DNA of 64,000 nt, from contig JAUSII010000122.1 of the NCBI GenBank assembly GCA_030648035.1, forward strand, positions 24,537 through 88,536, read 5' to 3'. Below are positions 18,773-60,725 of the stretch, one piece after another. The notes beneath the pieces are model-generated. The model saw only the letters and a program-made list of their open reading frames with translations, searched no databases and was not told where the DNA came from. The DNA comes from Deltaproteobacteria bacterium. Its GTDB lineage: Bacteria; UBA10199; SPLOWO2-01-44-7. Each line of letters starts with the position of its first letter. Positions within the stretch are counted from its first letter, which is position 1. The translations under genes were made by a program, and so were the position numbers.

Positions 18773-18818
18773 TAAGGGATGCCCCCAGTCAAAAATCAGC
18801 AATGCCCTGATGGTCTCT
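18773..18818 (+). promoter_or_regulatory. regulon motif copy P8, degenerate (GCCCCCAGTCAAAAATC...TGCCCTGATGGT)
   Basis: Same orientation and spacing as the other copies; about 70 bp upstream of csbD-like 18887. Confidence 0.55.
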
Positions 18819-18886
18819 CGCTCGGTTTGTGTTATTTTTTAAAAATAAGTTCGTGCAAACCATTCAGTATTAACCAGGGAGGCATT

Positions 18887-19051
18887 ATGGCAGGAGAATT
18901 CGATAAAGCCAAAGGGCGCATTAAAAAAGCGGTCGGGGAGTTGATAGGGAATGACAAGTTGAAGCGCGAAGGTTCGATCGACAAGTTGTCGGGCAACATA
19001 AAATCAGGAGTGGATAAGGTCAAAAAAGTTTTGGAAGGAAAGAAAGTCTAA
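18887..19051 (+). CDS. CsbD-family general stress protein (54 aa)
   Basis: KAKGRIKKAVGELIGNDKLKREG...VDKVKKVL is a CsbD-like bipartite helical repeat. GGGAGG RBS present. Confidence 0.75.
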   Translation: MAGEFDKAKGRIKKAVGELIGNDKLKREGSIDKLSGNIKSGVDKVKKVLEGKKV

Positions 19052-19081
19052 TCAAGAGAATTGGTTTTTGTGTCGGCATGC

Positions 19082-19654
19082 TTAATGTTTACAGGTTATG
19101 TCTGGCTTGAAAACGTTTCCGCTCATGTGGATTTTGGTATGCAGGTCTTTGCCGTTTTTTGCCAAGAAATTAGCGAGGCCTTCTTCAAGATTGAGAAATG
19201 TTTTTTTTGCTTTTACCACCTTGCCGTCAAATAGCACTACGTCAACATCAACATCGATCTGGGTCGTCTGCACCCAACCTTTTGCCTGAATATTGGCCAT
19301 TCCCTCTATGGCAGTATACCCGCATATGAGGCTGATTTTCGGATTGAGCTCTGCCGCTGGAACACGGCTGATCTGAATTTTCTGAAAATCAAAGCGCAAT
19401 GGCAACAGCTGAAAAGTCCCTTTTGCCTCAAGAGGAGCACTTTTAGAGGAACCCTCAATGATGAACGAGATTTTTGCGAAGCCTGTGAGTTCTGTCTCCA
19501 CTTTTGTCAAATGAACGGAATAGGGGAAAAGAAAAAAATTCCCTCCCCACTTGATAAAAAAATTCCGAAATAAAAAAATAGAAAACAGGAGCAGACTGAC
19601 AACAGAAAAAACAGCAATGTAGGTTTTCATTTTCATTTTCATTTTCATTTTCAA
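19082..19654 (-). CDS. membrane-anchored hypothetical protein (possible LEA_2/WHy-like)
   Basis: N-terminal TM anchor. The 5' end is built from an (AAAATG)5 hexamer repeat encoding (MK)5. Confidence 0.5.
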   Translation of the reverse strand: MKMKMKMKMKTYIAVFSVVSLLLFSIFLFRNFFIKWGGNFFLFPYSVHLTKVETELTGFAKISFIIEGSSKSAPLEAKGTFQLLPLRFDFQKIQISRVPAAELNPKISLICGYTAIEGMANIQAKGWVQTTQIDVDVDVVLFDGKVVKAKKTFLNLEEGLANFLAKNGKDLHTKIHMSGNVFKPDITCKH

Positions 19655-19706
19655 ATTTTAAAGCTTCCAAAATCAAAGCCCACGTTAACCCCTTTGCCCG
19701 ATCCTG

Positions 19707-21551
19707 TTAAGGCCAAAGAACACTGACCCCTTTGGCTCTCAGGGCATCGATTTGGGAGGAGGGAATTTGGGGGTTACCTTCAAGACCTACAAGATCATCA
19801 CCGTGATCCAATCCACTATTGCTAATAAGAGGATTGATATCTGAAATTTGATTTTCAGTCAGGAGAAGTATGTGTAAATTAATAAGCGACGAGAGGGGAT
19901 TTAAATCTGATATTTGGTTCCCATTAAGAACAAGCGAATACATATTAGTAAGCGCTGAAAGAGGTGCCAAGTCTGATATCAGGTTTTCATGAAGGGTGAC
20001 TCCGGACAAATTAACGAGTGATGCGAGAGGAGACAGGTCTGATATTTGATTATTGTGAAGCACTAGCCCGCCCAAATGTGTGAGCGGCGAAAGAGGGCTG
20101 AGATCTGCAATCTGGTTGTGATCCATATCAATGTTGATCAAATGAATAAGCGATGAAAGGGGGGATATGTCCTGTATCAGATTGTAAGAAAGATAAAGCT
20201 CGGTAAAACTGGCACTGGTAAGCGACGCAAGTGGGCTTAAATCCGATATTTGATTTCTCATAAGACTAAGCCGACGCAAATGAACCAGTGGCAGAAATGA
20301 AAGTGGGGACAAATCTGATATTTGGTTTTCATCAAGGCTCAATTCATAGAGAAGATTAGCAAAACATTCCAAGCCTGACAAATCCTGGATGTGTTTCCCA
20401 TGTAAGCCAATCCACAAGCCTGCGCTTGTTCTGTTTAATGTATCTTGCAATGTGAGATCATCAGTCGGGCCTTTTTCTAAACCTTGTCTTATTGCATTCA
20501 AAAGATTGGAATCTGCAAATGCATCGGTGATAATACCATCTCCATCCGGATCACAGTGTGTTCTGATATTTTGAGGAACAGTACAAACAAACCCCTCGTC
20601 TATTGAGACATTACAGTTATCATCAATATCATTACAATCCTCAACAGCCCCCGGATTTATGTTACCGGCATTATCGTTGCAATCTCCCTCTACGTCGGTC
20701 CAGCCCGACGGATACTTCGAACTCGACAGGCTTGAGCAAACTTCAATGGAATCATTTAAACTTCCATAACCATCATTGTCTACGTCGTGATAAAGGCTCT
20801 TGAAATTGGTGCATTCCGGAGGACCTGCATCTTGATGCCCAGCGTCTGAATGCAAAACCGTTGCGCCAGCATCACGCGCCCCACCGTCCAAATGATCTTT
20901 CCCGCCATGCCATCCATCGACATCCATCTCATTATCGTTTTGACCATTCTGGGAAGGATATCCACAACCAAAAACAGCCATTGCTGAGGCCATTGCAACA
21001 TCACGCACACTCACTCCATTTTGATTCTCTGCCGTATACTTTCCTTTTGGTATCGTCCCTTCACCAAATTTGTAGAAATAGACGCCCGTAACACGGTGAA
21101 TATAATCTCTAAAACCTTCGTCCGATTTCCATCCAATGGATTGCGCAAACCATCCACTTTTTTGTGTTTTGGAATTTGTTATAGCTGGCTCTAAACTGTA
21201 AACATCATTTTTTGAGAATGATGCCAAAGCTCTGTGTTGATTATGGTCTACGGAGGACTTATTTTCCGGAGAACAAACACCTTTAATTGACCAGCCCATA
21301 TTATTAACCTTTCTCTTTCGCCACTCCGTGTAACCCCATACAGTAAGGGTTATCGTCGGTATAGCAAAAAAAGTTGCGTAAAGAGGACCATTAAAGTAGA
21401 GGGGTCCAACTTGGCCCCTTTTTCCGGTGCTTTTCACTCTCGTATCGGTGGCACTCACCGCTATTTTTCTGTATTCGCTATCTTGCTTATTTGGTAGTCT
21501 CCGTCTGATGTTTTTTATTTTCTCCAGGTTGTCTCTTCTTTTTTTGCTCAT
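19707..21551 (-). CDS. leucine-rich-repeat protein (internalin-like LRRs), signal-anchored
   Basis: At least 8 tandem 22-aa LRRs (LxxLxLxxNQISDLSPL) and an Asp-rich middle region. Confidence 0.8.
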   Translation of the reverse strand: MSKKRRDNLEKIKNIRRRLPNKQDSEYRKIAVSATDTRVKSTGKRGQVGPLYFNGPLYATFFAIPTITLTVWGYTEWRKRKVNNMGWSIKGVCSPENKSSVDHNQHRALASFSKNDVYSLEPAITNSKTQKSGWFAQSIGWKSDEGFRDYIHRVTGVYFYKFGEGTIPKGKYTAENQNGVSVRDVAMASAMAVFGCGYPSQNGQNDNEMDVDGWHGGKDHLDGGARDAGATVLHSDAGHQDAGPPECTNFKSLYHDVDNDGYGSLNDSIEVCSSLSSSKYPSGWTDVEGDCNDNAGNINPGAVEDCNDIDDNCNVSIDEGFVCTVPQNIRTHCDPDGDGIITDAFADSNLLNAIRQGLEKGPTDDLTLQDTLNRTSAGLWIGLHGKHIQDLSGLECFANLLYELSLDENQISDLSPLSFLPLVHLRRLSLMRNQISDLSPLASLTSASFTELYLSYNLIQDISPLSSLIHLINIDMDHNQIADLSPLSPLTHLGGLVLHNNQISDLSPLASLVNLSGVTLHENLISDLAPLSALTNMYSLVLNGNQISDLNPLSSLINLHILLLTENQISDINPLISNSGLDHGDDLVGLEGNPQIPSSQIDALRAKGVSVLWP

Positions 21552-28161: not shown

Positions 28162-31100
28162 ATGGCATATGATTTTAAAAATGATGTTCGCCCGAAACCA
28201 TTTTCAAACGGGCTTTTAAGGTCATATCAAACAGGTGCCGAAAGCCATCCCAACCAAAACCATGATGTCTTGCAAACAGCCGCAAGCGGATATCAACACA
28301 AAACACCTGCTCTTTGGGAACGTATATTATTATCCCAGCCGGGGCTGGTGCTTGGATTCGCACTGTTTGCAGTTCTGACCGGATGCACGAGCGACACATC
28401 ACCCGGAAGTCCGGCATCACCCTCACCCACAACAACGCCCACACCGCAACCGGTAGATGCCGGAGTTTCAGAGGAGCCTTGCACGCCGAGCCAGGAATTT
28501 TGCGACGGACAAGACAACGATTGCGATGGTGAAACCGACGAGGATTATGCGGAGCGAACCCAAACCTGCGGCAAGGGAGCCTGTGCCAATACACAACCAG
28601 TTTGCGCCAACGGAAAAGCCCAACCCTGCTATGCGTTTGACGAAAATAGTTCTCCAGAAATTTGCGATGCCATTGACAATGACTGCGACGGTTACACCGA
28701 TGAACAATTTGATCTGGGGACAAAAATGGTGGGTGAAGGAGAATGCCGCCGACGAGTTGATAATTGCCGGGATGGACAAACCAATAATCCCGACCCGCTT
28801 CAGGGGGCTATATCGGAATCATGCGACCGACTTGACAATGATTGCGACGGCGCAACGGATGAAGAGCTTGGAGAAACCTCCTGCGGTTTGGGTGAATGTG
28901 AACATTCCATTTCAAATTGTCTGCATGGCGCCCTTCAATATTGCGACCCTCTTCAACACCGGCAGGAAGAGCGTTGCGACGGACTCGACAATGATTGCGA
29001 CGGTTCCACAGACGAAGAATTGTATCGCCCCTATTATAGCGGCAGACCAGGGACCATGGGGATCGGGGCCTGTCATTCTGGCATGGCCGTCTGTATCAAC
29101 GGACTGATGGATAATAATTTTCTTGTTGAAAATACAGCTCGGCCGGAAGTTTGCAACGGCGCAGATGACGATTGCAACGGACGTGTGGACGATGTGAATA
29201 TTCCCGAAATTTGCAACAGCTTGGATGATGATTGCGATGGCGATACGGATGAAAATATCCGCAATTGTCTCCGCGGTGAAATCTGCAATCCACAACCGGA
29301 AATTTGTAACGGCCGTGATGATGACTGCGATGACTTTGTTGACGAAAATCTGACCGAAAATTTTTATCCCGAATCCGACTTTCCCCTCACAGCGGGCATC
29401 GGCCCCTGTCTTGCGGGATTGAGAATGTGCATCGGAGAGAGATGGATGCCGGTTTCCTCTCCGATTACCCCCCATGCAGAAATGTGCGACGGCATCGACA
29501 ACGATTGCAATGGAGAGGTCGACAACGATCTGGGAATTTTTCCATGTGGGTTGGGAGATTGCCGACATATGATTGCCGTTTGTGAAAACAGCACACTTCA
29601 ATTTTGCACTCCCGATGAAGCTGTTCTGGGAGCGGCAGAGGAGACCTGTGATAACTCCGACAACGACTGCGATGGAACCATCGATGAAAATATTTTTCGG
29701 GAAGGCCGCTATCCGGGGCCAGAGGAAAGCCGGGATGTGGGACTTTGCCGTCCGGCCTTGGAATCCTGTATTTTTGAAGAGTGGCGTGAGGTGTCGTCCC
29801 CCATTGTGCCTGCTCTGGAATCTTGTGATTTGCAGGACAACGATTGCGATGGTTTGGCGGATGAGACAGCCGATCTCGGAACAACCACCTGCGGCTTGGG
29901 GCCGTGTGAAAACACCGTCGATAATTGTATCGGCGGAGCTTTACAGGTTTGCGCACCTCTCGATGTCGCCTTTCCCGAAGCCTGCGATACACTCGACAAC
30001 GATTGCGATGGAGCCAGCGATGAAACAGCCGATCTCGGAACAACCACCTGCGGCTTGGGGGCTTGCGAACACACGGCGGACAATTGCTTCAAAGGGGCGC
30101 TTCAGTTGTGCAATCCCATGGAAGGGGCTTCGCTGGAAGCATGCAACTCTATCGATGATGATTGCGACGCGGGCACAGATGAAGTCGAAGATCTGGGGAG
30201 ATCCACTTGCGGTGTGACCCCTTGTGAAAATACCGTCGACAACTGTGTCAACGGAGTCATCAATGCCTGCGATCCTTTTTTGGGGTCATCGGGAGAAACA
30301 TGCGACAACATTGACAACGACTGTGACAGCGAAACCGATGAAACAGCCGACTTGGGGCAAACCAGTTGCGGATTTGGGGCCTGCCAAAATACCGAGGACA
30401 ATTGTGTCGATAACCAGCCGCACGGCTGTACTCCGCTGAATAACAGCTCTCTGGAAATTTGCGCTGATGGAGTCGACAACAACTGCAACGGCCAGACCGA
30501 TGAGCTCTCTGTTGCCCCATCCCCCACGCACCCTTTGGCAGCAGGCCCCTATCCGGCCACACGCATCTATTTTTCATGGTCTCCGCTGGTGGCGGTTAAT
30601 CCACCGAGTTATGAACTCTGCTGGACTACCGGCGGTATCGCCGCGATTGATACTACAAATGAATGTCCGAACCGGACGGTGGTTTCCGGAAAGTCTTTTC
30701 ATGTTCTGGAAAATGTCACTCCCAACGCAACCCATATCTGGAAAGTAAGGGCTTTGTGCAAAGCCTCCGGTGTCGAGACAGCCCCTTACAGCGTGCCGCG
30801 AGCTTTCAGCGTCGATGACTCACTCATCGCCTGGTATAAATTCAACGCCAATGGCAACGGAATCGAAACCGATTATAGCGGTCATCTCTACAACGGCAAT
30901 TGGGTCGGCACAAACTTGGCCACACCACCACGGTTGGGCAACGGAAGTTTTTGCAACAGCATGGCGATGGGGCATGTGCTGACGGGGGCACTCTGTCTTG
31001 ATGGCGGCGATGACTATCTGGCTGTTCCCGCCCGAACCGATTTCAATCTGACTTATGAAGTTTCCGCCATGGCGTATCTCCATCCCAATGTGGCCACAAC

Positions 31101-31572
31101 CGGTGGCTCACTGGGCCGTCACATTGTTCTGGCCAAGGGGGGACAACTGGCTACCAATAACGATTCTTCTGATTATTCCATGGCGATTGATCCGCGTTCC
31201 AATCAGAATTTCAAGATGGTTTTTGGAACGCGGGGCGAAGAATGTTCCGTCACCAACAATTCTGTCGGATCGGGTGCGCCCCATTTTATCGCGGGCAGTT
31301 ACGATAACCAAACCATCAGTTGCTATCTTGACGGAGCGGCCGGCAACCCTTTCTCATTTATATTCAGCACCGACATTCCCAACAACACCCCCAGCGTGCG
31401 TATCGGAGCCGATACTTCAGCGGCCTCCACCTCCACTTATTTCAAGGGAGCATTGGACGATGTGATTCTTCGAAACGTTGTTTCTACCGAAGCGGCCATG
31501 GAACTCAACTTCTGCGCCATCAAGGGACTGACATTACAGCAGGGCGAAACCATGCCGACTTTGTGCCAGTAA
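28162..31572 (+). CDS. giant lipoprotein with >15 MopE-like Cys-rich 'CDGxDNDCDGxTDE' repeats, FN3-like region and C-terminal LamG/ConA-like domain
   Basis: Lipobox LTGC. Repeated Cx(2)CDGxDNDCDGxTDE units include two near-identical ~135-bp tandem copies at ~29850-30110. C-terminus is LamG_3-like. Confidence 0.8.
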   Translation: MAYDFKNDVRPKPFSNGLLRSYQTGAESHPNQNHDVLQTAASGYQHKTPALWERILLSQPGLVLGFALFAVLTGCTSDTSPGSPASPSPTTTPTPQPVDAGVSEEPCTPSQEFCDGQDNDCDGETDEDYAERTQTCGKGACANTQPVCANGKAQPCYAFDENSSPEICDAIDNDCDGYTDEQFDLGTKMVGEGECRRRVDNCRDGQTNNPDPLQGAISESCDRLDNDCDGATDEELGETSCGLGECEHSISNCLHGALQYCDPLQHRQEERCDGLDNDCDGSTDEELYRPYYSGRPGTMGIGACHSGMAVCINGLMDNNFLVENTARPEVCNGADDDCNGRVDDVNIPEICNSLDDDCDGDTDENIRNCLRGEICNPQPEICNGRDDDCDDFVDENLTENFYPESDFPLTAGIGPCLAGLRMCIGERWMPVSSPITPHAEMCDGIDNDCNGEVDNDLGIFPCGLGDCRHMIAVCENSTLQFCTPDEAVLGAAEETCDNSDNDCDGTIDENIFREGRYPGPEESRDVGLCRPALESCIFEEWREVSSPIVPALESCDLQDNDCDGLADETADLGTTTCGLGPCENTVDNCIGGALQVCAPLDVAFPEACDTLDNDCDGASDETADLGTTTCGLGACEHTADNCFKGALQLCNPMEGASLEACNSIDDDCDAGTDEVEDLGRSTCGVTPCENTVDNCVNGVINACDPFLGSSGETCDNIDNDCDSETDETADLGQTSCGFGACQNTEDNCVDNQPHGCTPLNNSSLEICADGVDNNCNGQTDELSVAPSPTHPLAAGPYPATRIYFSWSPLVAVNPPSYELCWTTGGIAAIDTTNECPNRTVVSGKSFHVLENVTPNATHIWKVRALCKASGVETAPYSVPRAFSVDDSLIAWYKFNANGNGIETDYSGHLYNGNWVGTNLATPPRLGNGSFCNSMAMGHVLTGALCLDGGDDYLAVPARTDFNLTYEVSAMAYLHPNVATTGGSLGRHIVLAKGGQLATNNDSSDYSMAIDPRSNQNFKMVFGTRGEECSVTNNSVGSGAPHFIAGSYDNQTISCYLDGAAGNPFSFIFSTDIPNNTPSVRIGADTSAASTSTYFKGALDDVILRNVVSTEAAMELNFCAIKGLTLQQGETMPTLCQ

Positions 31573-48233: not shown

Positions 48234-48235
48234 GG

Positions 48236-48350: not shown

Positions 48351-49913
48351 ATGATGAGAAATTATAAGATGTTGTTCACGGCTTTATTTCTGGCCGCTTT
48401 CATAGCTGGATGCGGAGGTGGTAACGGGGAAGAGGTGGCAGAAACACCCGCCGCCACTACTACTACCACCACGACCACCAGCACGACGACAGACGCCACC
48501 GATACAACGGCGGGCATCACCGGCACGGCGACAGGCACCACCAGTGCAGCGGTCGACACCACTGCACCCACGGTGAGTTCCACAGACCCCGTCAATGCGG
48601 CCACAGATGTGGCGATTGACAAAAAAATCTCTGCAACCTTCGACGAAGAGATGGATTCCCTGACAGTCACAACCACAAATTTTCTGGTCACAGGACCCGG
48701 AACAACTTCCGTCTCCGGAACTCTCGCTTTGGTGGGCAACATCGCAACCTTTACTCCTGGAAGCAATCTCGCGGCCAACACCTTATTTACGGTAACGGTC
48801 ACCACCGGTGCCAAGGATATTGCAGGCAATGCATTGGCCAGTGATAACGTATCGACCTTTACCACCGGTGCAACGGCAGACTTGACCGCCCCCACCGTGA
48901 GTTCCACCAATCCTGCCAACGCTGATGGGAGCGTGGCCATTAACAAAAAAGTCACCGCCACCTTTAGTGAGTCGATGGATTCTGCAACAATCATCACGGC
49001 AAACTATACAGTGACGGGACCTGGAGCAACCCCCGTCGCAGGAACTCTGGCGTTGGTTGGCAACGTTGCAACATTTACCTCTGACAGCAATTTCGCACCC
49101 AGCACACTGTTTACAGCAACGATCACCACCGGGGCCAAAGACGCCGCTGGCAATGCGTTGGCCTCCGATAAAGTGTGGACCTTTACAACAGGAACAGAGG
49201 CGGCTCAAAGCGTCGCTCAAGCAACAGTGCCCCTTGGATCATCCTCAAATTTTGCAATTCTGGCTTCTGCCGCAATCACCAACGTCGCGACTTCCGTGAT
49301 TAATGGAGATGTCGGTTTGACTCCGGATGCCGGATCCAACATCAGCGGGTTCAGCGCTCCAGACACATGCCCGGAAGTGACAGGCAAGATATACGCCGTG
49401 GATGCAACAGGTCCTGCGTGCATTATACCTGCGCAACAAAATCCGACGCTTCTTTCGGATGCCAAAACCGATGCTGGAATTGCATTCACCAATGCCAGAA
49501 ACGCTGTTCGCGGAACGCCTGCATCCATCTCGGGCAATCTGAATGGGCTGACACTGTATCCCGGCTTATATGAATCCGGAACTTCGCTTGAAATATCTGC
49601 AGGTGGCTTTCTTTATCTGGATGCTCAAGGCGATGCGAATGCCGTCTTCGTTATTCGGAGTGAAACCTCTATCACCACGCTGTCCACCAGTGAAGTTGTT
49701 TTGACCAAGGGCGCAAAAGCGGCCAACGTCTACTGGATAGCGGGGAGTTCGGTAACTCTTGGAGCGAACTCGATCATGAAGGGAACCTTTGTAGCAGGAA
49801 CATCCATTGCGCTACAGACCGGTGCAAACCTGGAAGGAAGAGCATTGAATCAGGGTGCGTCGGCTGAAGCGGTTACACTGGATTCCAGCACCATCACCGT
49901 GCCTTCTCTGTAA
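48351..49913 (+). CDS. secreted paralog: Thr-rich linker + 2-3 Ig-like repeats + DUF3494 ice-binding-like domain
   Basis: Lipobox FIAGCGG and poly-Thr linker. Its Ig repeats and C-terminal DUF3494 region are closely similar to 33106-34923 and almost co-linear over the last 250 aa. Confidence 0.85.
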   Translation: MMRNYKMLFTALFLAAFIAGCGGGNGEEVAETPAATTTTTTTTSTTTDATDTTAGITGTATGTTSAAVDTTAPTVSSTDPVNAATDVAIDKKISATFDEEMDSLTVTTTNFLVTGPGTTSVSGTLALVGNIATFTPGSNLAANTLFTVTVTTGAKDIAGNALASDNVSTFTTGATADLTAPTVSSTNPANADGSVAINKKVTATFSESMDSATIITANYTVTGPGATPVAGTLALVGNVATFTSDSNFAPSTLFTATITTGAKDAAGNALASDKVWTFTTGTEAAQSVAQATVPLGSSSNFAILASAAITNVATSVINGDVGLTPDAGSNISGFSAPDTCPEVTGKIYAVDATGPACIIPAQQNPTLLSDAKTDAGIAFTNARNAVRGTPASISGNLNGLTLYPGLYESGTSLEISAGGFLYLDAQGDANAVFVIRSETSITTLSTSEVVLTKGAKAANVYWIAGSSVTLGANSIMKGTFVAGTSIALQTGANLEGRALNQGASAEAVTLDSSTITVPSL

Positions 49914-49938
49914 GGTGCCTTGATGAAGGAAAGTTTGA

Positions 49939-49976
49939 AAGCCCCCTGTGCCGAAAGGTGCAGGGGGTTTTTATTT
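49939..49976 (+). terminator. rho-independent terminator (same hairpin as at 34953)
   Basis: GCCCCCTGTGCC-GAAA-GGTGCAGGGGG followed by TTTTTATTT. Confidence 0.85.
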
Positions 49977-49977
49977 C

Positions 49978-50030
49978 TGTAGGGTAATCCCCCAGTCAAA
50001 AATCAGGCCTCCCCCGATTGTCCTTATTTC
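49978..50030 (+). promoter_or_regulatory. regulon motif copy P6
   Basis: TAGGGTAATCCCCCAGTCAAAAATCAGGCCTCCCCCGATTGTCCTTATTTCACCCCT. Confidence 0.7.
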
Positions 50031-50101
50031 ACCCCTCGAATAGCTTCTCTGCATCAGTAAAACTAAGGAGATGCTGTTTATCTTCACGGGGGGCTTAATT
50101 C

Positions 50102-51154
50102 ATGTCTGACACATCAAGATCTTTGGCGATAGCAGGTGTAGCTTGCGGAGCAGGTGCCGCGATAGGGGCGGGAGCTGGGAGTATTGTCCCGTTAGCGGGA
50201 ACCGCTTCGGGGGCCGCTTTGGGCTGTGCCATAGCTGTTGCGGCCGTTATTTCCAGTGGATGCGAAGGGCGCCCGTGGACGGGCAGTGAATCCGACACCG
50301 ATGTTAATCCCGAAGGTGTTAATCCCGAAAATAATATCTCCGGTACCGTGGACACATCCGATGTATACGCTGCAGGTGATAGAGTTATTCATGCAGGTGC
50401 AGGGAGAGATGGTTATGTTGTTAGTGGCGGTGGTGTTGTCTACGTAGGTGCAGAGGGAGATTTTTATGATGCGGGCAATAGCGTTGCGGATGCCTCTATG
50501 CCGGGATTCGACGCGGGTGATGGTGTTATCGATGCGGGTGATGGCGTCGTCGCCGATGCGGGCGATGGTGTTATTGACGCTGGCGATGGTGACGTTGATG
50601 CAGGGGATCGTTTCGTCGATGCAGGTGTGCGGTATGATGGGGGTTCTGGTGCTGTTGATGCGGGCGTAGTTGATGCAGATGCCGGTACAGTGTTGACATG
50701 TAACGATCTGCAAATTTTGTTGGATGAATCTTCCTGCGTTACAGATCCACAAACGGCTTCCATTTTCAGCAGTGAACTGCCCCGCAGTATTAAAGTGATT
50801 GGATTTACATACGGGGATTCGGATGTTGTTGGCTGTCCCTCCCGCAGTGTCATGTTACACGCGGCTAATCAGTCTCTCTTTATTACTCTTATGGCAGATA
50901 GGGGTTCCATACCGAGACTTCAAACGGATCCCGACGCCACTTTAAGTCCTTTCGCCGAAGATTTTATAAATACAATTAATGGTGAACACACTCTTATTCC
51001 GGCGGACGGTTTTGTCGAGGGGGCCATCGGCGTATGGTGCGATCCAAATCCCGACAACCAATCCTTTATTTTTGACTCGGCGATAGACAGTTTAAATTTG
51101 ATTTACAACGTACCGGGATACTCCTGCAACTATCAGGTGAGTAGCCCGTGGTAG
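50102..51154 (+). CDS. hypothetical protein: Gly/Ala-rich N-terminal hydrophobic region, (DAGDGV)n repeats, Cys-containing C-domain
   Basis: AGVACGAGAAIGAGAGS...; DAGDGVIDAGDGVVADAGDGVIDAGDGDVDAGDR repeats. Confidence 0.5.
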   Translation: MSDTSRSLAIAGVACGAGAAIGAGAGSIVPLAGTASGAALGCAIAVAAVISSGCEGRPWTGSESDTDVNPEGVNPENNISGTVDTSDVYAAGDRVIHAGAGRDGYVVSGGGVVYVGAEGDFYDAGNSVADASMPGFDAGDGVIDAGDGVVADAGDGVIDAGDGDVDAGDRFVDAGVRYDGGSGAVDAGVVDADAGTVLTCNDLQILLDESSCVTDPQTASIFSSELPRSIKVIGFTYGDSDVVGCPSRSVMLHAANQSLFITLMADRGSIPRLQTDPDATLSPFAEDFINTINGEHTLIPADGFVEGAIGVWCDPNPDNQSFIFDSAIDSLNLIYNVPGYSCNYQVSSPW

Positions 51155-51177
51155 TTAAATCCGTGAGAGGAAAAATT

Positions 51178-53352
51178 ATGAATAAAAAAATAGTCAGCAC
51201 CGTGTTGTCCCTCTTCGTAACAGTCCTCACAAGTTTTTTTTCGGGGACAGCCGGGGCACAGACCTGTACCGCGGTGAACGGAGTCTGTACCGTGACACAG
51301 GCGAGCGGCACCGGAAACGAAAGCCTCGAGGCCTGCATCAACACGGCGACCTGTTCAAAGATCATCTTCGGTGTTCCGGAAGTGACCATTGACAAGACGA
51401 TCCCTTTTGGTCGCAGTAATATATTGATCGATGGTGAGGGCATCACGACACTGAACGGCAATCTGCCGATGTTCTTCGAAATCACAAAGTCCAATATTGT
51501 TATTCAGCGCCTTGCCGTCGAAAATGCTGGGGGCATCGCGTTCAGATTGGTCGGCAGTTCCAACACCGTTTCCAATTGTTCCTTTGCGGGCGGCGACTAC
51601 GGTATCGGTGTCTATTCGGGAATAAAAAATCTGCTTTCGATGAATACGTTTTCTGGCGTAGGCAGTGCCGCCATCGCTCTTTTTAATGGAGGGAATGCAA
51701 ACCTCGCTTCTCCAGTGTTGTCTGATGCCTCTCTTGTGAGTGCAGACAAATGGGAGCTTAAAGGGAGAGTCTCTTCGAGAGTGGTGCGGGTGGAGTTGTA
51801 TGAAGCCGATGCGGGGAACGTGCCTCAAGGGATGTCCTATCTGTTTACAATAAGCAATGATCCGGCGAGTGGCATCCGGTCCGACGGCACCTTCGTGGTT
51901 CCGATGGACATCTCGCGATATCATCCGGCCAAGCGCTATGTTGCGTTATCTTTTGACGCGGACAACAATACCTCCGCCTTCTCGAATGTTTTTATCCCGA
52001 CCTCCGACAGCATCGATTTTTTCGGTCCCGATTTTTCCGCCTGCAGTCGCGCTCTGTGGTTTATGAATACGCTTGCGAGCGTGTGGGGTGGCGATTTTGA
52101 CGGTGACAACCTGTCCAATGGTTTTGAAGACAGAAATAAAAATTGTGTGCCTGATTCCGGTGAGACCGATCCCTCTCTTGTGGATACCGATGGCGACGGG
52201 GTTCCGGATGGCGAGGACAATTGCAGTAGTGTTCCCAATCCTCTTCAGGAAGATTTAAATAACAACGGGCGCGGAGATGTATGCGATGGCGATATGGACG
52301 GCGATCGCATACCCGATGCTCAAGACAATTGCCTCACCATTCCCAACGTCGATCAGATGGATACCGATGCGGATGGTCTGGGTGACGCCTGTGATGCCGA
52401 TATCGATGGCGATGGATATAATAATTCGCGCGACAACTGTATTTATATCTCCAATGCGGATCAGAAAGATTTGGATGGTAATGGCGTTGGCGATGTCTGC
52501 GAGAAAGATGATGACCGGGATGGTGTAACAAATTCGAATGACAACTGTCCTTTTGTGCCGAATCCGCTTCAGTCGGACAATGACGGCGATGGTGTCGGGG
52601 ATGTGTGCGATTTTGATATTGATGGAGAAGTAATTTTGAACCCTTCTGACAACTGTCCGCTGGCTCCAAACGCGACTCAAACCGATTCCAATGGCAACAC
52701 GGTTGGTGATGTTTGTGAATTGGATCTCGATGGCGATGGTATCTCTGATTTGAGAGATAATTGCGTGGCCATTCCAAATCCGAATCAAAACGATCTCGAT
52801 TTGGACGGTGTGGGTGATGTCTGTGACATCGATGTGGATGGAGACAAGGTCGACAACAGTGTCGATAATTGTCCCCTGCTCGCCAATGTCGATCAGCTTG
52901 ATACCGACCTCGATGGGAAAGGTGACGTCTGCGATTCGGACGTCGACAATGATGGCGTTCTGAACAATGCAGACAATTGCCCGATCATTGCCAATGCAAA
53001 CCAGAAGGATTCGGTTGGAGACGGTGTTGGAGATGTCTGCGACACAGGTGGCGATAGTGACGGAGATGGCATAGCCGATTTTCAGGACAATTGCCCGTTC
53101 GTTGCCAATGCAGATCAGGCCGATACCGATCATGACGGTGTCGGTGATGCCTGTTTTCAAACGGTCACACTAAAACTAAATGTCGATCAGAATATCGATC
53201 AGCCTCCCCCCACACCGGACCAATACAACATCGGCGGTGGGTCAGGTTGTAGTTTGATCCCCCAAAATACTTTTGATGCAAGTTCCATCGCGGCCCTGGC
53301 TCTGTTGCTGGCGAGCCTTCTTATATTGAGGAGAGAAAAATGCAAAAAATAA
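51178..53352 (+). CDS. secreted right-handed beta-helix-like protein with ~14 thrombospondin type-3 Ca-binding repeats and MYXO-CTERM-like tail
   Basis: Signal peptide ...GTAGA|QT. Repeated DxDxDGxxDxxDNCPxxxNxxQxD units. Ends GGGSGCSLIP...AALALLLASLLILRREKCKK. Confidence 0.8.
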   Translation: MNKKIVSTVLSLFVTVLTSFFSGTAGAQTCTAVNGVCTVTQASGTGNESLEACINTATCSKIIFGVPEVTIDKTIPFGRSNILIDGEGITTLNGNLPMFFEITKSNIVIQRLAVENAGGIAFRLVGSSNTVSNCSFAGGDYGIGVYSGIKNLLSMNTFSGVGSAAIALFNGGNANLASPVLSDASLVSADKWELKGRVSSRVVRVELYEADAGNVPQGMSYLFTISNDPASGIRSDGTFVVPMDISRYHPAKRYVALSFDADNNTSAFSNVFIPTSDSIDFFGPDFSACSRALWFMNTLASVWGGDFDGDNLSNGFEDRNKNCVPDSGETDPSLVDTDGDGVPDGEDNCSSVPNPLQEDLNNNGRGDVCDGDMDGDRIPDAQDNCLTIPNVDQMDTDADGLGDACDADIDGDGYNNSRDNCIYISNADQKDLDGNGVGDVCEKDDDRDGVTNSNDNCPFVPNPLQSDNDGDGVGDVCDFDIDGEVILNPSDNCPLAPNATQTDSNGNTVGDVCELDLDGDGISDLRDNCVAIPNPNQNDLDLDGVGDVCDIDVDGDKVDNSVDNCPLLANVDQLDTDLDGKGDVCDSDVDNDGVLNNADNCPIIANANQKDSVGDGVGDVCDTGGDSDGDGIADFQDNCPFVANADQADTDHDGVGDACFQTVTLKLNVDQNIDQPPPTPDQYNIGGGSGCSLIPQNTFDASSIAALALLLASLLILRREKCKK

Positions 53353-54650
53353 AACGCGTCGCAGTCTTATTCATAACCGTCTTTGTCTGTGTCGCCTCCT
53401 CCGAGGTGCGGGCGTTGAACATACAGTCGTCTCATCCAAACCCGGGGCAGACCGGAACCTTCAATGTCTTCGGCTCCAGAACCGAGCCCGCCCGGGGTTT
53501 TGGTTTTAGCGCGACAACACAATATGAAAAAGATCCCCTTGAGTTTCGCAATTTCACCACAGGCGCACAGGTGCGATACATTATGGACTGGATGGAAACC
53601 ACCGACGTATTGGCCGAGTATGGTTTTACAAATTGGGCGACGGTGGGGGTCGATATTCCGTTCAGTTTTGTTCGCTATGCCCTTCCCACAAACATGAATA
53701 TCCGTGAGAGTCATACCTCTCTTGGCGACATCACGGCCTACGGAAAATTCGCCATTTTACATCCGGACAAATACCCCATCGGGTTTTCGATCATGCCCTT
53801 TGTTGCTGCGCCCACGGGTTCTACCACCCATTTTACCGGAGATCATGGCACAGGCTGGGGTGCGAAACTTCTTGCCGACAAGGAATTTGACGGCGGATAT
53901 TTCGGCGTCAATCTGGGTTACAAGGCCCGCACAAGAAGCGATACCGTTCAGGCTGTGGGGAGCACACAAAGTCTCACGGTAGACGACGAGTTTGTATACG
54001 GAGTGGGCGGTGGGATGGATATTGTAAAAAAGAAATTGAGAGTTTTTACGGAATTGATCGGGTCTACTGCGGCGGCAGATTTTGCAAAGCATTCACAGAC
54101 GAGCCCGATGGAAGTGAACGGAGGGTTTGAGATCGGTGCCATGAAGAACGCCATGAAGGTCACCCTGGGCGCCGGCAGTGGGTTGAATGGCGGCTACAGC
54201 GCACCGAGATTTAGAGTTTTTGGAGGCCTGACATATCACTGGCAAATAAAACCGGCCGCAAAAAGGATCGAACTGGCAAAAGCCGAACCGGCACAAGAAG
54301 AAGTGATTGATACGATCATTCTGGATGGAATCCATTTTTCCTACGACAAATATACAATCCTTCCGGATTCCAAACACATCCTGGATGAAAACTTTTTGAA
54401 GCTTCAAAAATATCCAAAAGAACACTTTCGTGTGATTGGCCACACCGATAGTCGTGGGAGCCATCAATACAATCAAGTGCTCTCGGAAAATCGGGCGAAG
54501 TCGGTCGTGGATTACTTTATTAAAAAAGGAATCGCGCCGAATCGTCTGCAGTGGGAAGGACGCGGCAAGAGAGAGCCCGTTGCGCCCAATAATTCAGAAA
54601 GTAATATGTGGCTCAACAGACGGGCCGTTGAAGTGCAAGTGTTGAGATAA
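53340..54650 (+). CDS. OmpA-domain outer-membrane protein (N-terminal barrel-like domain + C-terminal OmpA_C)
   Basis: Signal peptide; C-terminus ...VIGHTDSRGSHQYNQVLSENRAKSVVDYF...NRRAVEVQV. Confidence 0.8.
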   Translation: MQKIKRVAVLFITVFVCVASSEVRALNIQSSHPNPGQTGTFNVFGSRTEPARGFGFSATTQYEKDPLEFRNFTTGAQVRYIMDWMETTDVLAEYGFTNWATVGVDIPFSFVRYALPTNMNIRESHTSLGDITAYGKFAILHPDKYPIGFSIMPFVAAPTGSTTHFTGDHGTGWGAKLLADKEFDGGYFGVNLGYKARTRSDTVQAVGSTQSLTVDDEFVYGVGGGMDIVKKKLRVFTELIGSTAAADFAKHSQTSPMEVNGGFEIGAMKNAMKVTLGAGSGLNGGYSAPRFRVFGGLTYHWQIKPAAKRIELAKAEPAQEEVIDTIILDGIHFSYDKYTILPDSKHILDENFLKLQKYPKEHFRVIGHTDSRGSHQYNQVLSENRAKSVVDYFIKKGIAPNRLQWEGRGKREPVAPNNSESNMWLNRRAVEVQVLR

Positions 54651-54674
54651 AAAAAAAGAAAAGGAAAAAAATAT

Positions 54675-55778
54675 ATGAGCACAGAAATATTTGGACTTGA
54701 TACTCCGTCATTAGCAGGTTCTCTCGAGTTGCTTGGTATTGATTCCGAGAAGTGGCGTGTCAGGAAATCAGGCGTGAAAGATTCCCCGGCGATGCTGGAA
54801 AGGGACGTTTACTTTAGCGGCGGGAAACCTTTTTCTTGGTCGTGTTCCGACCCGGGTGAGCCTGCCGAAGTGGCGGCGTTGCGCGATAATTATATCCATC
54901 TTTGGAGTCGGGATGCGGTTTACTATCTGGCGGCATTTAATCCGTTGCTTGGCGAACTCAATGATGTCGAAAAGTCTGACAAGTTTTTCACTGAAGCTCA
55001 AAAATATCGTGGCCGCGTTGCCGATTTTTTTAAAGGCCGTTACCAAAAAATGCACAGTTCGGCATCCTATGACAAAAAATATGCCACTCCACTGGAAGAT
55101 GGCGTTGGGGTTCTGCTGGAGGGCTTTGCACTCGGTGGGGAGGCATCAAAAGAAAGTGATGTGACCCGCTCGATCGAAATTTTTGTGAAGAGGCGTCCCG
55201 GACAGAGATCCTTCGCGCGACTCCTCGAAGCCAATAAAAACTACTGGAAGGCAACACGGGCTAATCCCGATAAAGCTCCAACAATTCTTGCGAAGGCCTT
55301 TGAGAATCTGGGTATCAGTGCAGAGGATGCAAACACTTGCGTGGGGTTGAACATGCTGGAGGCGATTGCCGCAAGATCAGATCAGATATGTGCGTCCGGT
55401 GAATATAATACCTCTTTTGATATTGCCATGATCCATATGTTCAAAGAATTGGATGATCGTCAGGATGTGCTTTTGAAATGGTTGGTGCCGCATATGTTTG
55501 CATTGCAGAAGGAAACGTATCAGCCAACCGCCGCACCAGAGGTTGTTGCCTTCGTTCCCAAAGAATCCAAACCACCCAAAGCACGCAGAGTTATCAAAGT
55601 TATCAAACAAGAGTTTGAAGCAAAGCCGGCAGAGGAGCCGCCGGTTATTTCATCACCTGTGTATGAGGCGCCACCTCCACCTCCGCCTCCACCGTCACCT
55701 CCACTCGCGTTTCAAAAACCGGAACAAAAATGGAAACGGCCGAAGGCTTATGGCGGTGAAGAAGTTGAAGTTAAATAA
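54675..55778 (+). CDS. hypothetical protein with Pro-rich C-terminus (PPPPPPPPSPP)
   Basis: ORF with RBS; no conserved motif. Confidence 0.5.
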   Translation: MSTEIFGLDTPSLAGSLELLGIDSEKWRVRKSGVKDSPAMLERDVYFSGGKPFSWSCSDPGEPAEVAALRDNYIHLWSRDAVYYLAAFNPLLGELNDVEKSDKFFTEAQKYRGRVADFFKGRYQKMHSSASYDKKYATPLEDGVGVLLEGFALGGEASKESDVTRSIEIFVKRRPGQRSFARLLEANKNYWKATRANPDKAPTILAKAFENLGISAEDANTCVGLNMLEAIAARSDQICASGEYNTSFDIAMIHMFKELDDRQDVLLKWLVPHMFALQKETYQPTAAPEVVAFVPKESKPPKARRVIKVIKQEFEAKPAEEPPVISSPVYEAPPPPPPPPSPPLAFQKPEQKWKRPKAYGGEEVEVK

Positions 55779-55806
55779 CATAAACAAATAACACAAGGAG
55801 ACGAAT

Positions 55807-56724
55807 ATGATAAGCGGCGGAAACGAAGAGGGCATTAAACGAGCAGCGGTACAAGTCTGGTGCAGTGGATTTCTTGCGGATTACAACAGCGACAAAGATG
55901 AGACGGGTTGTCCGGCGTCTGTTGAGAGAGAACTCACATGGGCCTACACACAAATCAAAGACCCTCTGCAACGGGACAAACTCGATGCATTTCTCAAAAT
56001 CTGGATAGGACAGCCGATGGAAAATTGCGGAAGTGAATCGGGCGCGGAGGAGAGCGGCTACAATGACACGACAGCTCCTGCCGCCACCAAATGTATGGAT
56101 GAATACAGATTGGGCACGCGGAGGAGAATTCAACTCAAAAATTTAAGTTTGCCAGGGATGCCCACCAAAGTGAAAGCCTTTGGGGAGAATGGATATGTAC
56201 CGTGGGCGGTGAAGATGGTGCAGATGGGATATATTCCGAAAGAGCCATGTCCTCTTGTGGAGCTTGCCGATAATCGGGTGAAGCGCGCCATGGCCCGACT
56301 GGGAGCGGCCGCCAGCATGAAGTTCAATGGACCACACATCCCCGCAGTTATTTACGGGCTTCAGGTAGAGGCGCCACAACTTTTCTGGCAGTCTAGTGAT
56401 GCCGGATGGGCGGCGGGGGGTCGTTTGATGGCAGGAGGTATAAGTCGATTGCAGGATCACGCCGAAAATGACCAGACAACCGGGTTTGTCAAAGCCGGAG
56501 TGGGTCCTGAATATGCAATTTTCAGGGACGACAATGTGAGCATCAGCACAGCCCTTGCAAGCGTCATGACCTTCAATGGGAGTGAAGACCTGGGAGGCGG
56601 TGGAGAATTGGGTTTGCGAGTCGACACCAATAAGCGGGCGGGCGTAGGCTTGGACTTCATCCTCGAATATATACAGGGAGAGTTGCTTCCCATGGGTGGC
56701 GCCTATCTTTATTGGGGGTTTTAA
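55807..56724 (+). CDS. hypothetical protein ending ...GGAYLYWGF (possible outer-membrane-targeting C-terminus)
   Basis: ORF with GGAG RBS; terminal aromatic-F. The last 75 bp are duplicated at 58998-59072. Confidence 0.5.
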   Translation: MISGGNEEGIKRAAVQVWCSGFLADYNSDKDETGCPASVERELTWAYTQIKDPLQRDKLDAFLKIWIGQPMENCGSESGAEESGYNDTTAPAATKCMDEYRLGTRRRIQLKNLSLPGMPTKVKAFGENGYVPWAVKMVQMGYIPKEPCPLVELADNRVKRAMARLGAAASMKFNGPHIPAVIYGLQVEAPQLFWQSSDAGWAAGGRLMAGGISRLQDHAENDQTTGFVKAGVGPEYAIFRDDNVSISTALASVMTFNGSEDLGGGGELGLRVDTNKRAGVGLDFILEYIQGELLPMGGAYLYWGF

Positions 56725-58977: not shown

Positions 58978-59006
58978 TAAAAAGAAAAGGGGTCAAGTTG
59001 GACTTC
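58978..59006 (-). repeat. 35-bp element copy E (inverted), right boundary of the second cassette, fused to a 75-bp duplicate of 56650-56724
   Basis: AAAAGGGGTCAAGTTGGACTTCATCC; the downstream 58998-59072 is 74/75 identical to the 3' end of gene 55807-56724. Confidence 0.65.
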
Positions 59007-59093
59007 ATCCTCGAATATATACAGGGAGAGATGCTTCCCATGGGTGGCGCCTATCTTTATTGGGGGTTTTAAAACATTTTGTTCACCTGCTCT

Positions 59094-59477
59094 TTATTTT
59101 TTCTTACCTTCCAGAAGTGCTTTTATTTTAGAGAGAAGAGAATAAATTTCGTAGGGCTTGGTAATATACTCATCTGCCCCGCATTCTTTTCCCCAGGTTT
59201 TGTCGCTCTCCTGTGTTTTTGCGGTCAATAGAATCACCGGGATCGATTTTGTTTTGGGATCATTTTTCAAGTCGTGGCAAACTTGGTAGCCATTCATTTT
59301 GGGCATGATGACATCGAGCAAAATAAGATCGGGTTTTTCCTGCATGGCCCTTTCTATTCCTTTTGGGCCGTTATAAGCGACCAGAACGGAATATCCGGAG
59401 GCTTTCAATCGGATGCCCAATTCTTCCGACAGATCTTTTTCATCATCAACCAATAATATTGTTTTTTTCTGATTCAT
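59094..59477 (-). CDS. single-domain CheY-like response regulator
   Basis: ILLVDDEKD...LILLDVIMPKMNG...LLTAK; 127 aa. Its start overlaps the HK stop by 32 nt. Confidence 0.8.
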   Translation of the reverse strand: MNQKKTILLVDDEKDLSEELGIRLKASGYSVLVAYNGPKGIERAMQEKPDLILLDVIMPKMNGYQVCHDLKNDPKTKSIPVILLTAKTQESDKTWGKECGADEYITKPYEIYSLLSKIKALLEGKKK

Positions 59478-60660
59478 TTTTTCTCCTTTTCCCCGCAATG
59501 GGGAGTGTAAAACGAAATGTAACACCTGTTTTTTCAGGACTCTCCACCCATATTTTCCCCCGGTGGCGTTCAATAATTTCTTTGCAGATGGCCAACCCCA
59601 ATCCTGTTCCTTTGTAGGGCCCCGTCCGTTTTTCCCGATCGAGCTGGATAAATTTTTTGAACAGGTCATCCATTTTTTGACGGGGAATGCCGGGACCGTC
59701 ATTGGCAATGCTGATTTCAATGAATTGGGGAGAGCCACTCTCCGGCTTGGCGATAGTTGTTGCAACCACGATTTCTTTTTTGGCATAGAGAATGGCGTTG
59801 CTGAACAGGTTTGTCAAAGCCTGCGCCACCATATCCGAATCAGCTTCAACGGTAGGCAGGTCTTTTTTGTGTTTTTCTTTTATTTTGAGGTTCCTTCCCC
59901 TTTTCCCGCCCTGATAGCTTTGAACGATTTCATGAATAAGCGGGGTAAGATGAATCTCCTTTTGCTGAATTTTTGTCCTTCCTGATTCCAGACGGGAGAG
60001 ATCGAGCAAATTTTCAATCAGTTTGGACAATCGTCTGACATTTCTCTGCCCCCGGTCCAAAGCCTCGGCCTGTGCTTCAGAAATGGGGCCCAGGATTCCC
60101 GATTTAAGATTGTCTATTCCAAGTGCAATCACCGTGAGCGGCGTGCGCAGTTCATGGGAAACCATGCTCAAGAATTCATCTTTCATCTTTTCGAGCTTTT
60201 TTCGCTCGGTGATATCTTCAATGGCCAGGAGGATTGTCTTCTTCTTGTCCGTTTTTCTGTAAATGCGTCTGGCGTTCAAAAGCATTGTTTTCAACCCAAT
60301 GGTTTTGAAGTTGTGCTCCACTTCGTAATCCTCAAAAGTGGTATGCTTGGGAAGAATTTCTTCCAGGAGCTGTCGCAGTTTGGGGATATTCCACTGCCGG
60401 TTGCCCAGATGATAAAGAAACTTTCCCTCGGTCTCATGTGGCTTGACTTTAAAAGTCTTATAGAAGGAGCGATTGGCGGAGATGATCTTCAGGTTGGTAT
60501 TGAGCACGATCAAGGGTTCCCGCACCGTCTCCACAATATTTTCGGCATATTCACGGGCGGCCCTGATAATTTCCTGAACTTTTTTTTGCTTGGTTATTTC
60601 CCGTTTGGTCGACTTTGCTGAATGACTCATAAGGTGATTCTCCCATATAGAAATTCTCAC
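59446..60660 (-). CDS. PAS-domain sensor histidine kinase
   Basis: PAS domain, H-box MVSHELRTPL, N-box and G-box GTGLGLAICK. Confidence 0.85.
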   Translation of the reverse strand: MRISIWENHLMSHSAKSTKREITKQKKVQEIIRAAREYAENIVETVREPLIVLNTNLKIISANRSFYKTFKVKPHETEGKFLYHLGNRQWNIPKLRQLLEEILPKHTTFEDYEVEHNFKTIGLKTMLLNARRIYRKTDKKKTILLAIEDITERKKLEKMKDEFLSMVSHELRTPLTVIALGIDNLKSGILGPISEAQAEALDRGQRNVRRLSKLIENLLDLSRLESGRTKIQQKEIHLTPLIHEIVQSYQGGKRGRNLKIKEKHKKDLPTVEADSDMVAQALTNLFSNAILYAKKEIVVATTIAKPESGSPQFIEISIANDGPGIPRQKMDDLFKKFIQLDREKRTGPYKGTGLGLAICKEIIERHRGKIWVESPEKTGVTFRFTLPIAGKRRKNESEKNNIIG

Positions 60661-60678
60661 ACATTAGCGTTGAATACT

Positions 60679-60725
60679 ATAGGGGAATCCCCCATTCAAA
60701 ATTCATGCCTTCCCTGATTGTTCTC
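60679..60725 (+). promoter_or_regulatory. regulon motif copy P7, degenerate (GGAATCCCCCATTCAAAATTCATGCCTTCCCTGATTGT)
   Basis: 85 bp upstream of csbD-like 60810. Confidence 0.55.

Follow-up and report, generated by a model that had tools for sequence, protein, structure and literature searches.

A conserved composite promoter element and a candidate NarL-family response regulator in the genome of an uncultured deltaproteobacterium

Motif copies and the genes that follow them

The 64,000 bp of DNA considered here (positions 24,537–88,536 of contig JAUSII010000122.1, assembly GCA_030648035.1, Deltaproteobacteria bacterium; this whole stretch is called "the window" below) carries nine copies of a motif of about 45 bp, which lie ahead of genes for CsbD-like, ElaB-like, and surface proteins and, in one case, ahead of a response regulator (RR) gene. 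A relaxed form of the motif core, CCCCCAKTCAAAANNCNNNNNTNCCCYGATNGT, recovers eight copies on the + strand and has no match in dinucleotide shuffles of the window, from which the chance level was taken. These are the eight copies reported in the initial annotation, whose coordinates refer to the start at TA(A/G)GG, slightly (a few bases) before the literal string AATCCCCCAGTCAAAAATC-N5-TCCCCCGATTGT (found with 0–1 mismatch at 32996, 43318, 46810, 47387, 48243, and 49986). A 45 bp weight matrix trained on the eight window copies and six metagenomic copies scores the former at 47–72 bits and detects a ninth copy on the minus strand (43163–43207; 24.4 bits vs. 3.1 for the best of 20 shuffles), which faces the RR gene at 42394–43068 (minus strand). 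The ninth had been described as a "half-copy" at 43193, but it is a degenerate full copy on the opposite strand. An extension to ATTTCACC, given earlier as a general feature, is present only in the copies at 47381 and 49978.

Non-coding DNA makes up about 7.5% of the window, and all nine copies fall in it. Each has the orientation of the next gene, so the statement that every copy lies on the coding strand is correct as co-orientation (9/9), but not in the sense that all are on the + strand; eight are there because their eight target genes are. The distance from the end of GATTGT to the start codon is 31–99 bp in the window copies, in agreement with the 27–110 bp first proposed. Extended to 75 bp so as to include the predicted core promoter, and with the palindrome, proximal half-site, and -35-like and -10-like hexamers described in the next section, the copies are as follows.

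18772–18846, + strand: copy 1, degenerate, 46.9 bits, upstream of the CsbD gene 18887–19051; palindrome 18773–18787, proximal half-site 18803–18811, -35-like hexamer 18811–18816, -10-like TATTTT 18833–18838 (one base early)
32989–33063, + strand: copy 2, 71.9 bits; palindrome TAGGGTAATCCCCCA 32990–33004, half-site TCCCCCGAT 33020–33028, TTGTTC 33028–33033, TAAGCT 33051–33056
43311–43385, + strand: copy 3, 62.2 bits, upstream of the gene for a 1087-aa He_PIG/SBBP protein; palindrome 43312–43326, half-site 43342–43350, TTGTAA 43350–43355
46803–46877, + strand: copy 4, 65.9 bits; palindrome 46804–46818, half-site 46834–46842, TTGTGC 46842–46847, TAAGTT 46865–46870
47380–47454, + strand: copy 5, 64.2 bits; palindrome 47381–47395, half-site 47411–47419, TTGTCA 47419–47424, TATATT 47442–47447
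48236–48310, + strand: copy 6, 71.4 bits; palindrome 48237–48251, half-site 48267–48275, TTGTTC 48275–48280, TAGCCT 48298–48303
49979–50053, + strand: copy 7, 68.6 bits; palindrome 49980–49994, half-site 50010–50018, TTGTCC 50018–50023, TAGCTT 50041–50046
60679–60753, + strand: copy 8, slightly degenerate, 60.5 bits, upstream of the CsbD gene 60810–61037; palindrome TAGGGGAATCCCCCA 60680–60694, half-site TTCCCTGAT 60710–60718, TTGTTC 60718–60723, TAAACT 60741–60746
43133–43207, minus strand: ninth copy, putative autoregulatory variant, 24.4 bits; palindrome TGGGGGATTCCCCCA 43192–43206, half-site TTCCCTCAT 43168–43176, TGGAAA instead of TTGTyC, TA at the -10 position 43140–43145

In two cases stop codons (TAA or TAG) lie inside the left palindrome arm, and therefore gene ends overlap the next promoter: TAG of the copy 2 palindrome (32990–32992) terminates the receiver-only gene 32543–32992, and TAA of the copy 5 palindrome (47381–47383) terminates gene 46877–47383. 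The genes and operons downstream of the + strand copies are these.

18887–19051, + strand: CsbD-like protein (Pfam)
33106–34923, + strand: Big_5 plus ice-binding-like (DUF3494) protein (Pfam)
43451–46714, + strand: 1087-aa He_PIG/SBBP beta-propeller surface protein (Pfam)
46877–47383, + strand: 168-aa protein with a signal peptide; sub-threshold OprF match only
47522–48233, + strand: operon of a DUF883/ElaB-like gene (47522–47809) and a holin-X/YqjE-like membrane protein gene (47769–48233) (Pfam)
48351–49913, + strand: second Big_5 plus ice-binding-like protein (Pfam)
50102–56724, + strand: probable target operon, its extent judged from tight same-strand spacing
60810–62148, + strand: operon of a CsbD-like gene (60810–61037) and genes for a 149-aa protein and an OmpA-domain protein, its extent similarly inferred

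The Pfam matches uphold the first description of the downstream genes as regards the two CsbD proteins, the two Big_5 plus Ice_binding proteins, the 1087-aa He_PIG/SBBP protein, and the DUF883_C protein with its holin-X-like partner. The supposed small outer-membrane barrel does have a signal peptide and 168 amino acids, but its OprF match is below threshold, and a look-up of this protein yielded one short contig only. The probable operon at 50102–56724 encodes a 350-aa protein (the first gene after the copy at 49979) that has no Pfam match, a thrombospondin-type-3-repeat protein, an OmpA-domain protein, and two further proteins without a Pfam match.

Architecture of the promoter element

Instances of the motif were collected from the window, metagenomes, genome assemblies, and loci reached via RR orthologues; 77 score above 20 bits and 67 unique ones, drawn from about 25 metagenome-assembled genomes, score above 30 bits. 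Their consensus is yTAGGGnAATCCCCyAgtcaAAAAyC-nnGnn-TcCCCyGATtGTyc, and together with the sequence that follows it has five parts.

Motif positions 2–16: inverted repeat TAGGGnA-A-TCCCCyA (7-1-7), its right half almost invariant and its left half weaker
Motif positions 21–24: conserved A-tract
Motif positions 32–40: third half-site TCCCCyGAT, a repetition of the right half 22 bp downstream
Motif positions 40–45: -35-like hexamer TTGTyC, which has T40 in common with the third half-site
Motif positions 63–68: -10-like hexamer TAnnnT, 17 bp beyond the -35-like hexamer

Within the inverted repeat the pairs 2/16, 5/13, and 8/10 are complementary in 65–66 of the 67 instances and the pair 6/12 in 62. 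This differs from the two direct half-sites of the initial annotation, and the half-site TCCCCyA with its 1 bp center fits neither the sequence nor the 7-2-7 layout of the NarL-type heptamers (TACYYMT) with which those half-sites had been compared. A TAnnnT sequence starts at motif position 63 in 44 of the 67 instances, a number that becomes 51 if a shift of one base is allowed, while every other offset from 46 to 85 has 0–5 instances; this -10 signal is independent, because its region lay outside the matrix by which the instances were collected. Since TAnnnT lies 17 bp beyond TTGTyC, GATTGT should be in the -35 region and not near the transcription start. The spacer between the two hexamers is 71% C+T, and the -10 hexamer precedes the start codon by a median of 51 nt. 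Other features also support a promoter. At the copy at 47380 a generic sigma-70 scan independently calls TTGTCA-17-TATATT (10/12), and the copy at 49979 follows immediately on a terminator-like hairpin. At the copy at 46803 an ATG (46877) that has no ribosome-binding site lies exactly 7 bp past the predicted -10 TAAGTT; the mRNA for the 168-aa signal-peptide protein is a candidate leaderless message, and its predicted start is the ATG itself.

Loci L007 (9871–9943) and L022 (7655–7727) each contain two divergent full copies with one common palindrome, forming a symmetric 73 bp unit, and a palindrome common to divergent copies fits a dimeric regulator that serves both directions. The L007 minus-strand copy (44.9 bits, with a good -10) faces no convincing open reading frame, and it may drive a small protein, a small RNA, or an antisense transcript. 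In L001 and L014, several copies ahead of small genes share the sequence CTCAyCGCATCnaTCnAAC after the -10; this sequence was not seen in the window and may be the conserved 5′ leader of a paralogous small-protein family.

Other core promoter readings fit less well. Bases like the GG/GC of a sigma-54 promoter are present in two copies only, inside the variable N5 and at the wrong spacing. A promoter on the opposite strand that uses TTGACT (the reverse complement of AGTCAA) has two chance -10 matches, and its -10 columns are not conserved. GTCAAA as -35 with GATTGT as -10 has a 15 bp spacer and leaves the strongly positioned TAnnnT unexplained, and so is less parsimonious. The 45 bp motif appears rather to occupy about -74 to -30 in a composite promoter of ∼75 bp, of which it forms the upstream half. 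We regard it as almost certain that the motif is a promoter-associated regulon signal; its anatomy, the -10 hexamer, and the gene content support the original proposal that it is a shared transcriptional control element of a stress and envelope regulon.

Content of the putative regulon

Pfam profiles were run on 74 proteins encoded downstream of motif instances, and the families found were CsbD (8), Response_reg (7, in their own operons), Ice_binding (6), Big_5 (5), DUF1328 (4), and DUF883_C (4). One copy in the complete assembly CP064976.1 stands at the head of a gene cluster for BON, Fe-superoxide dismutase, OmpA, and ferritin/rubrerythrin proteins. The ElaB/YqjD-type DUF883 proteins of E. 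coli are sigma-S dependent. Two Salmonella proteins, the CsbD-like YjbJ and YtjA with its DUF1328 domain, are under sigma-S control (PMC5437024), and the csbD gene of B. subtilis belongs to the sigma-B response according to a citation in PMC7660261; therefore the content of the regulon is general-stress-like. The surface proteins appear to be a lineage-specific addition to it. Two genes for large proteins with MopE-type putative metal-binding motifs (19707–21551, minus strand; 28162–31572, + strand) lie near the regulon genes and have no motif copy of their own; one of these proteins also has leucine-rich repeats and the other a laminin-G-like domain.

The response regulator and its signaling operon

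The gene that the ninth copy faces is the first of a minus-strand operon for signal transduction, and a paralogue of its receiver domain is encoded on the other strand.

42394–43068, minus strand: NarL/FixJ-family RR (REC plus GerE helix-turn-helix; Pfam), the proposed motif binder
38376–42347, minus strand: hybrid histidine kinase (three PAS, GAF, HisKA, HATPase, three REC) of the RR operon
37543–38403, minus strand: CheR-type methyltransferase of the signaling operon
35741–37417, minus strand: REC-GAF-HisKA_3-HATPase kinase, of the type paired with NarL-family regulators
32543–32992, + strand: receiver-only RR paralogue that has no helix-turn-helix, 64% identical to the RR receiver over 133 aa

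The RR matches Response_reg at 1.5e-25 and GerE at 7.2e-17. Its nearest relatives in the PDB are VraR, DevR, DesR, and NarL, with DevR (E 1e-28) behind VraR and with RcsB as a weaker match, and no NCBIfam equivalog reaches its cut-off for this protein. It is a member of the NarL/FixJ family and not an orthologue of DevR, NarL, or RcsB. The operon of RR, hybrid PAS/GAF kinase, CheR, and REC-GAF-HisKA_3 kinase is conserved in L007, L009, and L011. HisKA_3 kinases adjoin the RR orthologues in L007, L009, L013, and L014, and more distant orthologues (66–69% identical) adjoin simple HisKA_3 kinases; the HisKA_3 kinase at 35741–37417 is likely the direct phosphodonor of the RR. The receiver-only protein may act as a phosphate sink or decoy, or it may be a paralogue that has been truncated. 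RR orthologues whose overall identity is 63–89% hardly vary in the recognition helix, VSVKTIESHYANIKNKL, in step with the invariant motif.

Linkage of regulator and motif, and distribution

A core pattern taken from the original motif has no match in 185,579 species-representative genomes and identifies five metagenome contigs. Redesigned from the invariant positions of 43 instances, the pattern finds 26 stretches in 19 assemblies, 11 with deltaproteobacterial-type labels and all uncultured. All six neighborhoods of RR orthologues that were fetched by protein hold at least two strong motif copies, and L014 has eight above 26 bits. Conversely, an RR orthologue (63–89% identical) lies within a few kb of the motif in L001, L005, L015, L016, L021, L024, L026, and L037, loci that were found by the pattern only; its presence in these eight is far above expectation for a single gene per genome. 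This linkage makes the LuxR-family regulator at 42394–43068, to which the initial annotation had already pointed, the best candidate for the protein that binds the motif.

A motif copy lies upstream of the RR gene or a kinase-RR operon in at least nine loci, namely the window, L001, L007, L009, L012, L014, L021, L024, and L026; in L011 the contig breaks off 241 bp ahead of the RR gene. The position of the ninth window copy, on the minus strand and facing the RR operon, implies autoregulation. In the window, L007, L009, and L021 the copy at the RR operon is a variant in which CATrGrAA replaces GATTGTTC and the palindrome, A-tract, and TCCCCy are kept (its form ahead of the RR genes of L007, L009, and L021 is ..TCCCCyCATAGrAA). 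As these variants keep TCCCCy and lose TTGTyC, TCCCCy should belong to the regulator site and not to the -35 hexamer. Matches of 27–48 bits were also seen in L017, L028, L029, L031, and L038, which carry Nitrospiraceae, Sumerlaeota, Omnitrophota, Myxococcota, and Spirochaetota labels; these may be due to mis-binning, transfer, or chance (∼0.55 chance hits are expected for the whole scan).

Proposed mechanism and alternative explanations

Judged from sequence, it is probable that the adjacent RR is both the binder and the activator of the motif, and that the window contains part of a general-stress-like regulon that the RR activates and to which its own operon belongs. What is observed is how the motif is built, how constant its distance to the -10 is, which genes follow it, that it is conserved among genomes, and that it is linked to the RR gene; from these observations we infer physical binding, activation rather than repression, start sites, and signal input in the following way. 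A phosphorylated dimer of the RR would bind the inverted repeat TAGGGnA-A-TCCCCyA, centered near -66, and a second dimer would be recruited cooperatively to the proximal site, centered near -44, which has one good half (TCCCCyGAT), lies 22 bp (two helical turns) downstream of the repeat, and abuts the weak -35 TTGTyC. The bound regulators and the intervening A-tract would recruit RNA polymerase with a primary-type sigma factor, and transcription would start ∼7 bp past the -10 TAnnnT. The RR would probably be fed by the HisKA_3 kinase, hybrid kinase, and CheR of its own operon, which it would activate through the variant copy. Members of the regulon would be small proteins of the general-stress type (CsbD, DUF883/ElaB-like, DUF1328) along with proteins of the envelope or surface (ice-binding-like, OmpA-domain, beta-propeller).

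Several points weigh against this mechanism. All motif-bearing organisms are uncultured, and binding, footprint, and start sites are predictions from DNA sequence; the centers at -66 and -44 assume a start 7 bp past the -10. The copy at 43311 has an intact upstream motif and no TAnnnT at the expected 43373–43378 (GTGTGG), so its core promoter may be different or defective, and in L013 there is no motif copy upstream of the kinase-RR pair. Regulator sites are seldom almost invariant over as much as 45 bp. The palindrome alone leaves the A-tract and the GATTGT block unexplained, part of which a dedicated sigma or second factor could read, and the linkage of RR and motif is also expected if the RR operon is merely a target of another regulator.

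These last points are the core of the most serious rival, that a dedicated alternative sigma factor, or a transcription factor encoded elsewhere, reads the whole motif or the A-tract plus TCCCCCGATTGT at its proximal end, and that the RR operon is one target only, for which a copy ahead of that operon would be equally expected. The proximal block is indeed very strongly conserved and fixed in its spacing to the -10, and the gene content is like that of the sigma-S and sigma-B controlled regulons cited above. Promoters of extracytoplasmic function (ECF) sigma factors have AAC-type -35 and CGT-type -10 elements, and the sigma gene is often nearby and autoregulated. Here, on the other hand, the -10 has the form TAnnnT, usual for primary-type and closely related sigmas and not for the ECF type, and no sigma-factor gene is present in the six annotated RR-orthologue neighborhoods that the search covered, although a distant one may exist; for these two reasons an ECF-type sigma is not favored. 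Also unlike a sigma site, the distal palindrome can be used by two divergent promoters, as expected of a dimeric regulator, the RR-operon variants are without GATTGT but retain TCCCCy, and conservation of the RR helix goes with that of the motif. We therefore consider a separate sigma or other factor unlikely, although it deserves to be kept in mind; of the two options in the initial annotation, sigma factor or response regulator, it is the latter, acting with an ordinary -35/-10 pair, that agrees with these features.

The same RR might bind the motif and chiefly repress transcription or act as a roadblock until stress lifts the repression. NarL-family regulators can repress, and the proximal half-site touches the -35. 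However, the main palindrome lies well upstream of the -35, the -35 itself is weak (TTGTyC) and absent in the RR-operon variant, as is typical of activator-dependent promoters, and the predicted layout is like that of activating DevR (see below), all of which make repression improbable.

It is very hard to credit that the motif works as RNA, forming a cis-regulatory structure in the 5′ untranslated region (with C-rich tracts that pair with the ribosome-binding site, for instance), even though every copy stands in sense orientation ahead of a gene and its TCCCCC tracts are the complement of GGAGG/GGGGG ribosome-binding sites: the motif lies upstream of the conserved -10 and for that reason should not be transcribed; a terminator-like hairpin (49936–49973) ends 5 bp before the copy at 49979; the Rfam matches at gathering score in the window are three tRNAs only, and none overlaps the motif at E≤1 in 46700–50200; RNAalifold gives no consensus structure for the 67 instances (0.0 kcal/mol); and there is no compensation, the C opposite being unchanged where position 4 is A (20 instances) or position 7 is not G (48 instances). 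Equally hard to sustain is a mobile or repetitive extragenic palindrome (REP)-like intergenic repeat that has no regulatory role. Six window copies are almost identical over 36 bp, and those at 43311 and 46803 have another 26 bp in common on their upstream side, beside a separate hairpin repeat, but the flanks of the other copies are unrelated (each column upstream of motif position 2 has <0.2 bit), so the copies are not embedded in a longer mobile element; orientation and gene distance are fixed, the -10 is at a fixed distance, and in about 25 different assemblies the motif stands ahead of the same protein families.

Comparison with known systems

The closest parallel to the proposed RR-activated regulon is that of DevR (DosR) of M. 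tuberculosis, in which binding begins at a conserved primary box and spreads cooperatively to a degenerate one next to it, both being required, boxes are in helical phase at -63.5 and -42.5, and divergent promoters share boxes (PMC3177182); at hspX the activating box, centered near -43.5, has a suboptimal -35 beside it and makes contact with sigma region 4 and alpha (PMC13486717). In both cases a NarL-family regulator is paired with GAF-containing HisKA_3 kinases, a box can be common to divergent promoters, and the system is, or here would be, autoregulated with a regulon of stress or persistence proteins. Judged from the predicted starts, the arrangement of sites here would also resemble that of DevR: a palindromic primary box and, on the same helical face, a degenerate box with one good half (at about -66 and -44, 22 bp apart), the latter adjoining a suboptimal -35. 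There are also differences. DevR is only one of several PDB neighbors of the RR, which is not its orthologue; the half-site is TAGGGnA and not the GGGACT type of the Dev box; and the repeat is 15 bp (7-1-7) as opposed to 18–20 bp. The box order is fixed here (strong distal, weak proximal), with a conserved A-tract between; the signaling operon adds a hybrid kinase and CheR; and the regulon consists of CsbD, DUF883, DUF1328, and ice-binding-like proteins.

E. coli NarL and NarP belong to the same regulator family and also recognize inverted, C-rich half-sites of ∼7 bp, but the half-site here is TCCCCyA and not TACYYMT, the layout is 7-1-7 and not 7-2-7, and the targets are unrelated to nitrate respiration. 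RcsB, a NarL-family regulator in a hybrid-kinase phosphorelay, acts on envelope and stress genes through a ∼14 bp inverted repeat of the TAAG/TAGG type that lies upstream of or abuts the -35. Box placement and a NarL-family regulator fed by a hybrid kinase would be features of both systems; however, RcsB is a weaker match to the RR than VraR or DevR, the sequence and width of the box differ, and no components like RcsA, RcsF, or RcsD were seen. The sigma-S, sigma-B, and EcfG stress regulons overlap the present one in gene content, but the signal here is a regulator-type palindrome upstream of an ordinary-looking -35/-10 and not a sigma-specific pair. In the literature we found no description of the motif or the regulon, nor of NarL-type control of CsbD, DUF883, or DUF1328; a paper on the mapping of Desulfovibrio response regulators concerns a different system (PMC3333781).

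What sets the present case apart is the rigidity of the cassette and the apparent placement of general-stress-type genes under a response regulator. The analysis assigns a candidate regulator, operator, and regulon to a lineage that is known only from metagenomes, and for dozens of genes it predicts the binding site, the -35, the -10, and the start. If the assignment is correct, CsbD, ElaB-like, and DUF1328 proteins are under two-component control here and under sigma-S, sigma-B, or EcfG elsewhere, and the enigmatic DUF3494 ice-binding-like surface proteins find a place in a stress program. The rigid cassette could be used to mark the regulon in metagenome annotation, and it could serve as an inducible promoter part. 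More tentatively, and here we lean slightly toward doubt, a single NarL-family RR instead of an alternative sigma might be the master switch of a general-stress- or dormancy-like program in an uncultured "Deltaproteobacteria" clade; fed by a hybrid-kinase/CheR/HisKA_3 relay and acting through a rigid 75 bp cassette, probably in dozens of copies per genome, it would bring small stress proteins of the cytoplasm and membrane under one control with surface proteins, the ice-binding-like ones among them.

A separate hairpin repeat

The window also contains a separate hairpin repeat of ∼60–80 bp, bounded by GTCATTGCGAG ... CTCGCAATGAC, at 4410–4490, 12360–12431, 14822–14892, and 43220–43293, with a half-copy at 46774–46784. 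All are intergenic, and there are nine arm matches vs. 1.65 expected. The 26 bp flank common to the motif copies at 43311 and 46803 belongs to this repeat. Its copy at 43220–43293 lies between the RR-promoter copy and the copy at 43311, as if it had been inserted into a formerly divergent promoter pair.

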